Shown here: positions 17,175 through 22,618 of the stretch, one piece after another
Layout of the letters: each line of letters begins with the position of its first letter
How positions within the stretch are numbered: the first letter of the stretch is position 1
Assembly: GCA_048938855.1 (NCBI GenBank)
Contig: JBHLLT010000005.1
Location: forward strand, 64,001-128,000
DNA length: 64,000 bases
Source: Promethearchaeota archaeon
Lineage (GTDB): Archaea > Asgardarchaeota > Lokiarchaeia > Sigyniarchaeales > SOKP01
Reading direction: 5' to 3'
The notes under the pieces: generated by a model
Told to the model about the DNA's origin: nothing
Database searches by the model: none
Seen by the model: the letters and a program-made list of their open reading frames with translations, nothing else
Made by a program: the position numbers and the translations under genes

Positions 17175-17292
17175 TTATTAATTCTTATGTTGTTTTCCTT
17201 CATACAAAATCGAATTAAAATTATATTTTAGTAAAAATTATATAATAAAACGAATAATTAGTAAAAATCAATTAAAAATTTAAGTGAGAGAT

Positions 17293-17607
17293 ATGGCTAA
17301 AAAAAAGAGTGCACCAAGCGGAGAAGATGATTATGAAGTTCCCACTGGGAAAGTAGATGAAGATGGAGATGAAGTAATAGATCTAAATGAGTGGAAAGAT
17401 GATTTAGAAGAAGATGTAATATATGAAATCCCTGATGATGATGACATGATTGAAGACGAAACCGAAGATGAAGAATTTGGCATGGAAGTCGATGATGTTG
17501 TAAAAATGTTACGAGATGTTAAATGTAAGCCCTGTCCTGGTTTAAGAAGTAAACCAGATTGTAAAATTGCTCATGATTATGGATGTCCAAAACCAAAAAT
17601 GCCATAA
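17293..17607 (+). CDS. Small highly acidic protein with C-terminal Cys4 motif (ORF track starts at GTG 17284)
   Basis: D/E-rich core; CKPC-x8-C-x7-C; followed by T-rich terminator. Confidence 0.75.
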   Translation: MAKKKSAPSGEDDYEVPTGKVDEDGDEVIDLNEWKDDLEEDVIYEIPDDDDMIEDETEDEEFGMEVDDVVKMLRDVKCKPCPGLRSKPDCKIAHDYGCPKPKMP

Positions 17608-18687: not shown

Positions 18688-19848
18688 TTAATATGTATTA
18701 ATCATAACTTTAATAGCTTCAAGAGCTAATTCTATACTAACATTAATAAGATTAAGTTTTTTTTTGAAGTAATCAAGATCCGAATTTGATTTATCAATTT
18801 CTTCAAAAATGTTAAAAAAATGTTTCTGGGACTCTAATTCCATAGAATAAATATTTGGTCGAGATGTTAAATTACTCATATTGACAAAACATCCATGATT
18901 TACGAAATTATGATTAAAAGCAGGGAAATAAGTTTCCCATAATTTTTCTTTCAAATTATTATATACAGTATTAGCTAACTTTAAGCAATAGTCTTTACTC
19001 TTATCATTATAGCAGAAATAAAAAGGTAATTTACCTATTCCGTGATTTCTCAAATTATATTCTTTTAATTTTTCAAAAACTATCTCAAATTGTTTATGAG
19101 TTAAATTTAAGTGTGCATGATCAGCAGAAGGGCTGCACTTGAAGAATAACGGTTTGCAATAATAAGGAATATCATATAATTTCATAATGTTTAAGATTAT
19201 CCCTTCCTTAAGCCAATGATCAAACTTATAATACGGATTGAGACTGTTAACCAATTCAATTTGAAAGCGTTCTAATAAAGAAGTCTCATGAAAATCAAGT
19301 ATATATAAATTTACGTCATGTTTATCCCAATATTTTTGTAGTATCTGTTTAACAATATTTACTTGTCCGGGTAAAGTTTTACACTTTAAATCGTTATTTT
19401 CATTACTAATATTAGGAATAAATGCTTTACACCAAAATCTATTAAGATTTGTACCATCTTCCAGATAATAGCCAGATTTGTTTGATTTACTAGGATTTTT
19501 GAAACCATAAGGATTTAATAATGGTATAAAAATTAAAATCTGATTTGATCTCGCTACATCATTAAGTTCTATTTTTTTTTCTCGTAGCAATTCAAAAAAT
19601 TTTAGCATACTAAATAAACCATTATATTCATTATGTTGAGCACCTATAAAGATTTTTACGTGATTACAATCATCTAATTTAGTATTCTTGGCAATTTTAA
19701 TAACAGGTATAATGATCTTAGAACTTTTATATATCTGATAACTTATGAAGTTTAAATTTTTAACTAATTCTAATTCATTTAGAATTTCTTTAAATAACAT
19801 TTCTCGGTTAGAAATATCCAATAAAGCTTTTAATGTTTTAAGTTTCAT
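18688..19848 (-). CDS. M14-like zinc carboxypeptidase (AstE/AspA/CCP fold); start reassigned to ATG 19848
   Basis: GAQHNE (variant of HxxE), PLLNPYG, GTNLNRFW, LDFHE, C-terminal SMELE; ATG lies 1 bp after the upstream stop. Confidence 0.75.
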   Translation of the reverse strand: MKLKTLKALLDISNREMLFKEILNELELVKNLNFISYQIYKSSKIIIPVIKIAKNTKLDDCNHVKIFIGAQHNEYNGLFSMLKFFELLREKKIELNDVARSNQILIFIPLLNPYGFKNPSKSNKSGYYLEDGTNLNRFWCKAFIPNISNENNDLKCKTLPGQVNIVKQILQKYWDKHDVNLYILDFHETSLLERFQIELVNSLNPYYKFDHWLKEGIILNIMKLYDIPYYCKPLFFKCSPSADHAHLNLTHKQFEIVFEKLKEYNLRNHGIGKLPFYFCYNDKSKDYCLKLANTVYNNLKEKLWETYFPAFNHNFVNHGCFVNMSNLTSRPNIYSMELESQKHFFNIFEEIDKSNSDLDYFKKKLNLINVSIELALEAIKVMINTY

Positions 19849-19849
19849 A

Positions 19850-21295
19850 TCAAACAATAATTTTTTTCCAGTCTGAGAAATTGATGATCTTATTATAATT
19901 TTTTGCGATTGTTGCGAATAAAACGCAGCCAATACAGAACATATTAGCAAAATCTTCTTTTGTCAAGTTTAACAAACCACAATTTTTTTCTGAAAATCCT
20001 ATTCCACGTTCAACTTCAATTTGGCCATTATAACCCGATAAATTTACTACAAATTCTTGTTTATTTAATTTAACTTTATTAACAAATTCTTCTCGTGCAA
20101 TTCTTGCTAATCCTCCAATAGGGATAACTTCACCTTTTCGTTGAGCTAGATAGATTCGTAAATCAAAAGTATGGTTCCCTCCTTTCCAATCGATTAAGGA
20201 AAAATTAGCCATCTCTTGAATGGTGTATGGGAATGGGTCACGATTTTCCATAAATTTAGCATAAAATTCATTCTTACTTTTTTCAACTAAATTTTTAATA
20301 TTATGAAGATCTTCATCTTTTGAAATAGGTATAACTCCTGCTCCTCCAGAACCTCCACTAGGTTTAATAATAAATGATTTTTTATATTCTTTAATGAGAA
20401 AATTCAATTTTTCAACTAATTCCTTCTCACTAAATGCTTTTGTGAACAATAGGTACTTTAAATTATATTTTTTAAGTAAATCTTTACTAAAATAGCTAGC
20501 TAAATATGTTAGAGACTTATCATCAGTGATATTAAAAATAGGATTCACTAAAATTGAATTTACTTTGTGGAAATCTTGTTTAACTAATTTTAAAAATTTT
20601 TTATTGTTGAAACGTCTTGTTATACCATCTCCTATTAATACACTTACCTTTTCTCCTTTATATTTAATCCAATTATTAGAAAATGAAAGTGATTTAGATA
20701 ATTGTTTATAATCAGCAATTAAAAATACAATTTCAGCTCTAAAATATTTGTCGTAATTATCAATATTAAAAATTTTAACTGAATGTTCATTAGCTTTAAA
20801 ATAATTTCTAAAATATTCTATCATTATTATTTTTTCATGGATTAAACCATCATTAACAGGTACTCCAACTATTACAAAAATTTTGTTAACTGTATGCTTA
20901 TTTCGTATAATAGCTCGAGTAATTGCTTCAATATAACCATCATATAAAAGAGATTGTTGTTTCTTAGTAATTATTGAAAGACCTCGGTGAGATCCACCAT
21001 TGGTTTCCAAAAGAAAGAATTTTTTCCCATTAGGATCATCAGATACCATAAAATCAATGCTACCAGCATAAAATGAATCTGCATCAATTAATGTGTTATC
21101 ATTTCCGATTTCCATCATTGTTAAAGCTTTATCTCTAACGTCATCTATAAAAGTATCTTCTTGTGAGGCTCTCAAATCGGCGAATGACACCAAATCAAGA
21201 CCTAAAGATTTTCCTAAGTTGATTAATTCTAAATCTGAATCTGATATTTTTGAAGACATTAGTTTTAGGAACTTTGTGAGAAGATCCTCATCCAT
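19850..21295 (-). CDS. Circularly permuted ATP-grasp amide/peptide ligase (CP_ATPgrasp_2/COG2308-like)
   Basis: D...ExN strand pair (SIDFMV...LLETN) at the N-terminus, then VNP..DDK, IKPSGGSGGAGV, TIQE, FDLRIY, GGLARIA, VVNLS. Confidence 0.82.
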   Translation of the reverse strand: MDEDLLTKFLKLMSSKISDSDLELINLGKSLGLDLVSFADLRASQEDTFIDDVRDKALTMMEIGNDNTLIDADSFYAGSIDFMVSDDPNGKKFFLLETNGGSHRGLSIITKKQQSLLYDGYIEAITRAIIRNKHTVNKIFVIVGVPVNDGLIHEKIIMIEYFRNYFKANEHSVKIFNIDNYDKYFRAEIVFLIADYKQLSKSLSFSNNWIKYKGEKVSVLIGDGITRRFNNKKFLKLVKQDFHKVNSILVNPIFNITDDKSLTYLASYFSKDLLKKYNLKYLLFTKAFSEKELVEKLNFLIKEYKKSFIIKPSGGSGGAGVIPISKDEDLHNIKNLVEKSKNEFYAKFMENRDPFPYTIQEMANFSLIDWKGGNHTFDLRIYLAQRKGEVIPIGGLARIAREEFVNKVKLNKQEFVVNLSGYNGQIEVERGIGFSEKNCGLLNLTKEDFANMFCIGCVLFATIAKNYNKIINFSDWKKIIV

Positions 21296-21391: not shown

Positions 21392-22618
21392 TTAGAGATA
21401 CAAATACCCTTGATGATTTCCTTTAATGCTTAATCTAAGAGAACCAATAAGTATTTTCTTTACCTTAAGTTGTTCCTTATAAGTCAAGTTTGAATAAAGT
21501 AAGATGTAATTCTTTTCAATATTTATTGTAAACAGAAGTCCAATTTCAATCAATTCAGATTTTTCAGTCATTAAACCAATTATTACATAATGATAAGGAA
21601 GATTAATAAGTTCATAAATATCTAACTCTTTTTCAAAAATTTGATCTGCTTCCTTATCAAATTCTGTTTTTATGAACTTAATATCATCAATAGGAATCGA
21701 AATTTTTCGGAACTCTTCAAATTTCTTAGAAAATTGGCTTTGGCGTAAAAATCTTCTTTCGTCTTTATCTTTTTCATAAAAATATTTATTTTTCTCTTTA
21801 ATTAGAAAGATCTTTCTATCTTTCCTAGTACTTGATGAAGTCTTTTCAATTGTTTGAAGTTCCTCGACTGTTTCATCCTGAAAAATTATCAAAACATCTG
21901 GATCAACTGTGTTAATAAAAAAATTTTTATAAAGGATCCCTGCCTCAGTTTTAATCCAACCATCTGTATCAATTAAAACAAAATCAATGGGCTTATTCTT
22001 GTTAACGTAGTTATCAATTAGATTCCTACATGAATGAGAAACAATGAATTTATAATCTCCTTTTGGAAAAGTAGCTCCAATAAAAATAGTTTTCTCAGAG
22101 ATAATATCTTCACTTGAAACAATAAAATCTCCGATAGAACCAATGTTTATCGTAGTGGGAATATATATTATTTGTTGACCCAGATCAGAATCAAGATATC
22201 CTCCTTTCAACCCTTCTTTTAGGAAGTGGTTTGCTAAATACTTGATAAAAGTTGTTTTTCCGCTACTAATCCCTAATACCATGATTTTAAGCTCAGCGCC
22301 TTGTTTTTGTTTTAGAATTTTTATGATAGAATCTTTTATCTCACTCCAATTTGAAGAAATCGAATTTTCTTCAATATTTACAAGATTTTCTTCAGATCTA
22401 ATATATATATCTAATTTTGATTTCTCTACAGCATAAATAGGATAACTTTGTGCACTTGGTACTATTAATACATTATTTAGATTTGATACATCGGAGGATG
22501 ATTCCTCTTTCTCGGGAGTAAGTATTTTTCCAAAAACATCGACTTTTCCCTCTAATAAGGTTAATCTTGCTGGACCTTTTACTAGTAAGGTATGTCCTTT
22601 ATTTATATTTTTAATCAT
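21392..22618 (-). CDS. Clp1/Nol9-family polynucleotide 5'-OH kinase
   Basis: N-terminal 'LLVKGPARLTLLEG.V.VFG', SGKTT, DSDLGQ, IDTDGW, RR..RQ clasp/lid. Confidence 0.87.
   Translation of the reverse strand: MIKNINKGHTLLVKGPARLTLLEGKVDVFGKILTPEKEESSSDVSNLNNVLIVPSAQSYPIYAVEKSKLDIYIRSEENLVNIEENSISSNWSEIKDSIIKILKQKQGAELKIMVLGISSGKTTFIKYLANHFLKEGLKGGYLDSDLGQQIIYIPTTINIGSIGDFIVSSEDIISEKTIFIGATFPKGDYKFIVSHSCRNLIDNYVNKNKPIDFVLIDTDGWIKTEAGILYKNFFINTVDPDVLIIFQDETVEELQTIEKTSSSTRKDRKIFLIKEKNKYFYEKDKDERRFLRQSQFSKKFEEFRKISIPIDDIKFIKTEFDKEADQIFEKELDIYELINLPYHYVIIGLMTEKSELIEIGLLFTINIEKNYILLYSNLTYKEQLKVKKILIGSLRLSIKGNHQGYLYL

Follow-up and report, generated by a model that had tools for sequence, protein, structure and literature searches.

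A ligase gene and a hydrolase gene one nucleotide apart

In the stretch of Promethearchaeota DNA analysed here (hereafter the window: 64,000 nucleotides of contig JBHLLT010000005.1), two neighbouring genes on the minus strand encode P0001, a predicted circularly permuted ATP-grasp amide ligase of an unnamed family (481 residues, positions 19850–21295), and P0002, a divergent zinc hydrolase of the M14 fold and of probable AstE/AspA descent (386 residues, positions 18688–19848). The junction between them, read from the sequence, is TGA-t-ATG (19846–19852, minus strand): the stop codon of P0001 occupies 19852–19850, the start codon of P0002 occupies 19848–19846, and position 19849 is the sole spacer nucleotide. 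The initial annotation of this DNA had the ligase stop and the peptidase start 1 bp apart, and the sequence agrees, with both genes on the minus strand; the arrangement is compatible with translational coupling. The list of open reading frames (ORFs) also offers a longer, TTG-started frame for P0002, but more than 100 homologues measure 384–389 residues, so the ATG start is favoured. The pair is real, conserved and uncharacterised. Our preferred reading, to which we give roughly even odds, is that the two genes form a make-and-break pair for one amide bond, with a small molecule or short peptide as the likely substrate.

P0001 is a permuted ATP-grasp ligase without a family model

P0001 is encoded by a single-copy gene in the source genome and falls under no family model. 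Against Pfam and NCBIfam it has sub-threshold matches only, all to the central ATP-grasp region: the best Pfam score is 25.3 bits to YheC/D (cut-off 26.8), with further matches to GSH-S_ATP (16.9 bits, cut-off 23) and to a sugar-transfer ATP-grasp model. A sequence search of the Protein Data Bank (PDB) returns nothing significant. The permuted families CP_ATPgrasp_1 and CP_ATPgrasp_2 (PF04174 and PF14403) give no match to P0001 at E ≤ 1, and 1 of 45 relatives matches PF14403 (E = 0.0018). The TTL/TTLL model PF03133 does not match P0001 and matches 2 of the 45 relatives weakly; PF03917 and PF03738 have no match in the Pfam search. In the protein atlas, the nearest named set is PF08886 (GshA), with 10 of 30 matches.

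The elements by which ATP-grasp enzymes are recognised are all present in P0001: a K-P-x-x-G..G loop, a D-x-R strand and a D/E...E-x-N magnesium site. The predicted ATP-phosphate-binding loop, K311-P-S-G-G-S-G-G-A-G320 (20336–20365, minus strand), lies in the region that aligns to the YheC/D and GshB ATP-grasp models. The magnesium-binding motifs, D81 and E97-T-N99-G-G-S-H-R104, lie near the N-terminus within residues 77–105 (20981–21067, minus strand), where the AlphaFold2 model, built on 45 relatives, has strands at residues 77–87 and 90–99 (predicted local distance difference test (pLDDT) score 93; predicted template modelling score 0.92). Further motifs are D258-D259-K260, Q360-E361, D378-x-R380, G394-G-L-x-R398 and V416-V-N418, and those listed in the initial annotation (DDK, KPxxGxGGxG, QE, DLR, GGLxR and VVN) are all present and conserved. 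D81, E97, N99, G100 and G105 are at least 90% conserved among the 45 relatives, and K311, P312, G320 and R380 are conserved family-wide, in both cases down to 16% identity.

More than 35 solved chains match the ATP-grasp fold of the model at Z ≥ 8. The top Foldseek matches are human, plant and yeast glutathione synthetase, 3k1t, 3n6x, Escherichia coli glutathionylspermidine synthetase, YgiC/YjfC and the fungal ligase Cp1B. VIA-align ranks 3k1t first (Z 14.2), then the glutathione synthetase-like 5oeu (13.3), glutathionylspermidine synthetase 2io7 (13.0), yeast glutathione synthetase (12.8) and YgiC (12.7), with 3n6x at 11.6 and Cp1B at 10.4. Cp1B ligates a dicarboxylate and an l-amino acid (PMC12568646).

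In ordinary ATP-grasps, the D...E-x-N strands come after the V-V-N-L-S-G loop; their N-terminal position in P0001 is the hallmark of permutation. Known permuted ATP-grasps align colinearly to the model, from residue 16–54 through 435–468, whereas unpermuted ones (ArgX/LysX, DcsG, Ddl, RimK, synapsin and TTLL6/11) align only from residue 133–139 onward. On this core, ArgX and LysX score Z 12.8 and 11.6, TTLL proteins 8.7–10.3 and RimK 9.2–9.4. Because the permuted members align from the N-terminus and the canonical ones do not, the model confirms the earlier assignment of P0001 as a circularly permuted ATP-grasp whose catalytic motifs are intact.

Among known permuted enzymes, 3k1t, a putative glutamate–cysteine ligase of the Thiobacillus ferrooxidans type (PF08886, GshA), has the same topology and is the best structural match (335 residues, root mean square deviation (rmsd) 4.8 Å, model residues 54–468), but it is 11% identical to P0001, gives no hidden Markov model (HMM) match and has different gene partners. 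Eukaryotic glutathione synthetases (2hgs and 1m0w) and the glutathionylspermidine and trypanothione synthetases (2io7 and 2vpm, with YgiC/YjfC) are likewise permuted, with an N-terminal E-x-N magnesium site, and run colinear with P0001 from residue ~18 to ~440 at Z 10.7–13.3 and 9–14% identity. By fold, then, P0001 does sit with the glutathione and glutathionylspermidine synthetases, a characterised clade that the initial annotation had named as counting against its idea; by sequence it belongs to none of those families. A search of the 97%-complete source genome for γ-glutamylcysteine ligase (GCS2 and Glu_cys_ligase) found none, and no other glutathione-pathway gene was found there. Since the genome has no γ-glutamylcysteine ligase, P0001 is not the second enzyme of a glutathione pathway, and an identity as glutathione synthetase, for which there is also no HMM match, was rejected. 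CP_ATPgrasp_1/2 proteins are permuted like P0001 (3n6x is a solved example), but they usually have Alpha-E and transglutaminase-like neighbours; as the initial annotation had noted, no Alpha-E, transglutaminase-like or Ntn-peptidase (Anbu) gene flanks the pair.

P0002 is an M14-fold hydrolase with a shortened zinc motif

P0002 has no Pfam match, PF00246 and PF24827 included. NCBIfam gives one weak match, to a Shewanella N-acetylornithine deacetylase of the M14 fold, and a 27-sequence profile finds nothing among PDB sequences. The AlphaFold2 model (pLDDT 89) has the M14 carboxypeptidase fold over its whole length (Foldseek probability 1.00) and superposes on carboxypeptidases A1, A4, B and D with VIA Z 20–21 over 258 residues (rmsd 3.4 Å), which bears out the fold assigned to the second protein from sequence. 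The structures 4a37, 4b6z and 3l2n, similar to cytosolic carboxypeptidases (CCPs), score Z 19.9–20.0, level with the A/B and N/E subfamilies; all M14 subfamilies lie near 20 and are not separated by Z. The N-terminus of the model is mainly helical and the C-terminus ends in helices at residues 347–356 and 360–384.

An alignment of 27 homologues shows four further invariant motifs, PL(M/L)NPYGF, NLNRFW, LDFHETS and SMELES, beside a zinc motif that departs from the M14 norm. In A-Q-H-N-E-Y-N-G, which contains Q71-H72-N73-E74 (19627–19638, minus strand), the histidine stands two residues before the glutamate, as opposed to three in the canonical HxxE, so that a one-residue deletion gives HxE. We know of no precedent for HxE in an M14-fold enzyme. 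QHNE is invariant in the 27 homologues and persists in a homologue of a different family that is 31% identical. Also invariant are H187 in LDFHETS, the putative third zinc ligand, E337 and E339 in SMELES, candidates for the general base (these span 18832–19290, minus strand), and N136-R137 in NLNRFW, the putative carboxylate clamp (19438–19443, minus strand). From motif order and fold, we infer that H187, E337/E339 and N136/R137 correspond to H196, E270 and N144/R145 of carboxypeptidase A. About 70 columns are invariant, including every residue at a catalytic position. That the catalytic residues and QHNE hold even at 31% identity points to purifying selection on the active site, and the invariance of all catalytic positions argues that P0002 is probably active.

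The hydrolase is repeatedly lost while the ligase is kept

Close homologues of both proteins all come from metagenome-assembled genomes (MAGs) of Promethearchaeota, the Loki-type Asgard archaea, and form 421 ligase clusters and 217 hydrolase clusters. We surveyed 400 genomes of the phylum, excluding the source genome from the counts of the window's own family, f1. There the ligase is nearly universal (121 of 134 genomes, 67–87% identical) and the hydrolase is present in 87 of 134. Family f3, of the same order, has each gene in 2 of 14 genomes; family f7, of the same class, has the ligase in 1 of 2 and the hydrolase in neither. The ~250 remaining genomes give no genuine ligase match and no hydrolase; two genomes of the more distant family f24 have weak partial matches (E = 2e-6 and 2e-4) to another ATP-grasp, which were not counted. 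Two closed, single-contig genomes of the same order (4.4 and 6.0 Mb; G135 and G138) carry neither gene, and complete genomes of the Loki order, of which there are few, may lack the pair altogether.

Wherever the hydrolase occurs in Promethearchaeota, it lies directly downstream of the ligase on the same strand, and in every checked genome with both genes the ligase match ends 5–25 nt before the hydrolase match. In the window's own genus, five genomes keep hydrolase fragments after an intact ligase, with stop codons in four of the five; other genomes show a clean deletion, with 78–300 nt between the ligase and the next gene; and in one sister genus the ligase is found in 36 of 42 genomes and the hydrolase in 8 of 42. 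We mapped presence and absence on a quick IQ-TREE maximum-likelihood tree of 57 Promethearchaeota ligases, on which the loss count rests. The pattern requires six changes, five of them forced by well-supported branches; one locus (L014) was scored as lacking the hydrolase, its divergent copy falling below the cut-off, and relabelling it leaves the count no lower. At least five losses of the hydrolase have therefore taken place beside an intact ligase. The initial annotation had made conservation across Asgard genomes a check on its idea; synteny is indeed strict when both genes are present, and the hydrolase is dispensable. In one family f7 genome with the ligase and no hydrolase (G128), an M20-family peptidase gene is convergent to the ligase (L017:3189-4643); it may be a functional replacement for the M14-fold partner.

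These losses bear on a very unlikely alternative to the make-and-break pair, in which only the ligase functions and the M14-fold gene, decaying or encoding a dead enzyme, is carried along as a passenger with no shared substrate. The non-canonical HxE motif, the stop-codon remnants in the window's genus with clean deletions elsewhere, and the scarcity of the hydrolase in the sister genus would all fit such a passenger. Where present, however, the hydrolase is full-length and 52–82% identical across clusters, its position next to the ligase is conserved, and the invariant columns that include the catalytic positions and QHNE point to purifying selection on an active site.

A ligase/deacylase pairing across seven phyla, often beside an RtcB-like gene

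Beyond the close homologues, an exhaustive profile search of 1.84 billion representative proteins recovers the ligase family as only 83 clusters, with named members in a Hodarchaeales MAG and in the cultured methanogen Methanonatronarchaeum thermophilum (WP_086636686.1, misannotated as a 'TIM barrel enzyme'). A scan of species-representative genomes yields 74 ligase loci, including ones in Methanohalarchaeum, Hadarchaeota, Thermoplasmatota, Actinomycetota, Chloroflexota and Bipolaricaulia. ORFs were called in all 74 loci and the neighbours clustered; 21 loci are non-Loki and represent six other named phyla, with one locus from an unclassified archaeon.

None of these 21 loci contains a gene of the P0002 type. 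Instead, a gene for a ~315-residue deacylase adjoins the ligase in 16 of 21, downstream on the same strand or convergent. This partner is a clear AstE/AspA zinc deacylase (PF24827, E = 1e-24 to 1e-27); it resembles DoeB and aspartoacylase at the family level and shows barrel-sandwich hybrid matches at the C-termini. A gene for an RtcB-like protein of ~400 residues adjoins the ligase in 17 of 21 loci and is directly upstream on the same strand in 13, with a gap of 0–22 nt in the loci inspected. Methanonatronarchaeia, Hadarchaeota, Thermoplasmatota, Actinomycetota, Chloroflexota and Bipolaricaulia are the groups with this RtcB-like/ligase/AstE-AspA module, and in four genomes an HD hydrolase gene lies inside it. 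The ligase and an M14-fold deacylase form an ancient pair, shared by seven phyla. We found no description of the ligase family or of the module in the literature searched; the general theme, permuted ATP-grasps with peptidase or deacylase partners, was reportedly set out by Iyer et al. in 2009.

P0002 occupies the slot, downstream and on the same strand, that the deacylase occupies in Methanohalarchaeum, Actinomycetota and Thermoplasmatota, and the two families resemble each other in sequence. An hhalign comparison gives a probability of 87.5% and E = 3.6e-6 over ~190 columns, with a single gap of one residue, placed just after the zinc histidine (AQH-NEYNG against GQHGNEWNG). The partner family reads G-Q-H-G-N-E-W-N-G, LP..NP.AF, IDLNR and ID.HSGG where P0002 has A-Q-H-N-E-Y-N-G, PL.NPYGF, NLNR and LDFHETS. 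In the source genome, PF00246 has no match at all, and a profile of the partner family has P0002 as its sole match (E = 0.007). P0002 is thus probably a fast-evolving descendant of the AstE/AspA partner, in which case H72 would be the original zinc histidine, brought one residue nearer E74. With the AstE/AspA proteins of PF24827 (succinylglutamate desuccinylase, aspartoacylase and DoeB), P0002 shares Q-H-(G)-N-E-aromatic-N-G, NP..F, (D/N)LNR and D.H; it differs in having HxE for HxxE, ~70 more residues and no direct Pfam match, and in ending in helices where AstE/AspA proteins carry a C-terminal beta hybrid domain. The Loki-family pair is a lineage-specific variant and probably a remnant of the older RtcB-like/ligase/AstE-AspA module.

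The RtcB-like protein has no Pfam family or model. Its matches, all weak, are to RtcB (Pfam E = 7e-5, NCBIfam 0.002–0.005, PDB profile E ~0.26), and 25 of its 30 nearest clusters in the protein atlas belong to the RtcB-bearing set. The invariant motifs N-A-C-G, (S/G)-N-H-F, H-x-S and P-H-G-G-G-Y are colinear with the metal-binding and guanylyl-histidine motifs of the canonical RtcB of the source genome (on contig C81), against which, as a single sequence, hhalign gives a probability of 17%. In the source genome, the RtcB-like gene lies on another contig, beside the methionyl-tRNA synthetase (MetRS) gene (C24:4005-5216), beyond which 212 of the 400 Asgard genomes surveyed carry it and it extends to entire families that lack the ligase. 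In f3 and f7, outside family f1, two deep-branching genomes of the Loki class have it beside or near the ligase; the upstream genes in these two had been considered as Clp1-like, an assignment rejected once they proved to encode the RtcB-like protein.

In the window, the gene upstream of the ligase encodes a homologue of Clp1-type P-loop polynucleotide kinases (21392–22618, minus strand; PF16575, E = 4e-25), possibly in the same operon. In 38 Promethearchaeota loci, the gene immediately upstream of the ligase is a Clp1_P gene, 25–210 nt away; another Clp1_P gene stands ahead of the RtcB-like/ligase/deacylase module of one Actinomycetota MAG (L028:5623-6501). Eukaryotic Clp1 works in tRNA splicing and mRNA 3′ processing.

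Such neighbours raise a quite unlikely alternative, in which the pair works with the RtcB-like ligase, the Clp1 5′-kinase and the HD phosphohydrolase in RNA repair or modification, perhaps through the reversible attachment of an amino acid to an RNA- or nucleotide-borne carboxylate or to a pathway intermediate. In its favour are an RtcB-like neighbour at 17 of the 21 non-Loki loci and in the two deep-branching Loki-class genomes, the motif order of that protein (CGM, GNHF, HGS and PHGGG), colinear with canonical RtcB, the HD genes inside the module, the Clp1_P genes in 38 Loki loci and one Actinomycetota locus, and U32 genes upstream in two Chloroflexota loci. The relationship to RtcB is nevertheless remote and the activity putative, we know of no permuted-clade ATP-grasp that acts on RNA, and a neighbourhood alone cannot name a substrate.

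A proposed cycle of amide formation and hydrolysis

In the proposed cycle, P0001 would use ATP to activate a carboxylate as an acyl-phosphate and would link it to an amino acid, or to a related amine, through the amino group, releasing ADP and phosphate. P0002 would clamp the free α-carboxylate of the added residue through N136/R137 and would hydrolyse the same amide with a metal held by H72, E74 and H187 and with Glu337 or Glu339 as the base. A small-molecule substrate is favoured because the full-length structural neighbours of P0001 are all small-molecule ligases and because the characterised members of the hydrolase's probable parent family deacylate small molecules; the most likely substrate would be an N-acyl-amino-acid-like small molecule or a short peptide, as opposed to a protein tail. 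Glutathionylspermidine synthetase offers a similar make-and-break logic: fused to it is a CHAP cysteine amidase domain that breaks down what the synthetase makes, where the pair described here has a zinc hydrolase of the M14 fold as a protein of its own. For Loki archaea, the proposal has the RtcB-like gene moving elsewhere, a Clp1-type kinase gene lying upstream and the hydrolase serving as an accessory for recycling or regulation. The folds, the permutation, the conserved catalytic residues, the synteny, the distribution and the gene losses are observed, and the chemistry, the sharing of one substrate and its small size are what we infer from them.

Several observations weigh against this proposal. 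The conserved neighbours are RNA-end enzymes (RtcB-like, Clp1 kinase and HD), which would suit a macromolecular or RNA-linked function better than the plain synthesis of a metabolite. Z scores of 12–14 at 10–14% identity in model comparisons indicate a shared topology, not a shared substrate. The HxE motif could mean that metal binding in P0002 is altered or lost. Finally, the repeated loss of the hydrolase shows that the ligase works without it, so a shared substrate is not required.

The target could also be a protein. The ligase would then add amino acids to a protein C-terminus or acidic side chain, as RimK, TTL/TTLL and LysX do, and the M14-fold enzyme would trim them; the RtcB-like protein, the Clp1-type kinase or a translation factor would be candidate targets. 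An N/R carboxylate clamp on an M14 fold is the design of a carboxypeptidase, the tight packing of the RtcB-like and ligase genes suggests a physical partnership, ArgX and LysX, which modify a carrier protein, score well on the ligase core, and EF-P, prolyl-tRNA synthetase (ProRS), deoxyhypusine synthase and MetRS genes appear as translation-related neighbours at single loci. Yet the best full-length matches are small-molecule ligases, with TTLL and RimK matching the core only, characterised members of the AstE/AspA lineage deacylate small molecules, and the supposed eraser has been lost at least five times. The RtcB-like protein, moreover, is found in Asgard families that lack the ligase, and its conserved C-terminus (…YVLK) is not acidic. 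Tubulin_C has no match in the source genome, though the control genomes for the same search were also silent. On balance, we consider a protein tail unlikely, and a small-molecule or peptide amide made and broken by the pair the better account.

The initial annotation had gone further, with a writer/eraser pair analogous to TTLL/CCP. A conserved ligase/hydrolase pair, with the active-site residues of both proteins kept under strong purifying selection, is what we find; the specific analogy is not supported. The tubulin glutamylation cycle likewise sets an ATP-grasp ligase (TTL/TTLL) against an M14-fold hydrolase (M14D CCP), but TTLLs are unpermuted and match P0001 over residues 136–469 only; they and RimK, at the unpermuted core, stay below the Z of 12–14 reached by permuted small-molecule ligases. 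The hydrolase probably descends from the AstE/AspA branch, and the eraser has been deleted repeatedly beside an intact writer. The likeness of the modelled P0001 fold to TTLL is that of the generic ATP-grasp core only, and the analogy is no more than a formal possibility. The pair gives no evidence for an Asgard precursor of the tubulin code, which limits what it can say about eukaryogenesis.

A broader scheme, also quite improbable in our estimate, would make the pair the reversible-modification arm of an undescribed RNA-end-processing system of archaea and bacteria, composed of the RtcB-like ligase, the Clp1-type kinase and the HD hydrolase. By attaching an amino acid to one of the system's proteins or RNAs and taking it off again, the pair would switch the system on or off; in Loki-type archaea, the system would have been rewired with the Clp1 homologue at its centre. 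We find the RNA link the most intriguing lead, and the target could be a protein or RNA of such a pathway; the recurrent RtcB-like and Clp1-type association is a testable connection between amide ligation and RNA-end metabolism.

Independent of substrate, a ligase family without a Pfam or NCBIfam model that is almost universal in one Loki-type Asgard family implies a conserved function that nobody has named, and the recurrence of a permuted ATP-grasp with an M14-fold deacylase across many lineages suggests that make-and-break is a general design. The locus stands out for its HxE hydrolase, its Clp1 linkage, its near-universal ligase in one Asgard family and its natural hydrolase knock-outs, and the HxE motif is a natural test of how far an M14 metal site can be remodelled.

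Neighbouring genes and single-locus variants

The ligase locus has a Clp1 kinase, an alpha/beta hydrolase, a methyltransferase and an FmdE-like gene as neighbours. The gene order in the Loki family is Clp1-type kinase, ligase and, where present, hydrolase, followed on the opposite strand by the alpha/beta hydrolase and a small acidic protein. In the window, this protein (~108 residues, 17284–17607, plus strand) lies beyond the alpha/beta hydrolase gene; it holds the same place in 37 Promethearchaeota loci, and no module from another phylum includes it. It had earlier been a candidate acceptor, but because it lies on the opposite strand and is missing from the modules of other phyla, it is not a core partner.

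Translation- or RNA-related genes appear at single loci, among them ProRS, EF-P, a U32 pair, and a pyruvoyl arginine decarboxylase with deoxyhypusine synthase; they are suggestive, not conclusive. The last two lie between the RtcB-like gene and the ligase in one deep-branching genome of the same order (G139; L014:2268-3842), a polyamine/aIF5A-modification context seen in that genome alone. The U32 family includes RNA hydroxylases, and two Peptidase_U32 genes lie upstream of the RtcB-like/ligase module in Chloroflexota (L031:3368-6501 and L089). Four other loci, from Anaerolineae MAGs (L035, L036, L038 and L042), contain two adjacent copies of the permuted ligase, in tandem in three and convergent in L042, which suggests that these Chloroflexota twins are paralogues with different substrates.

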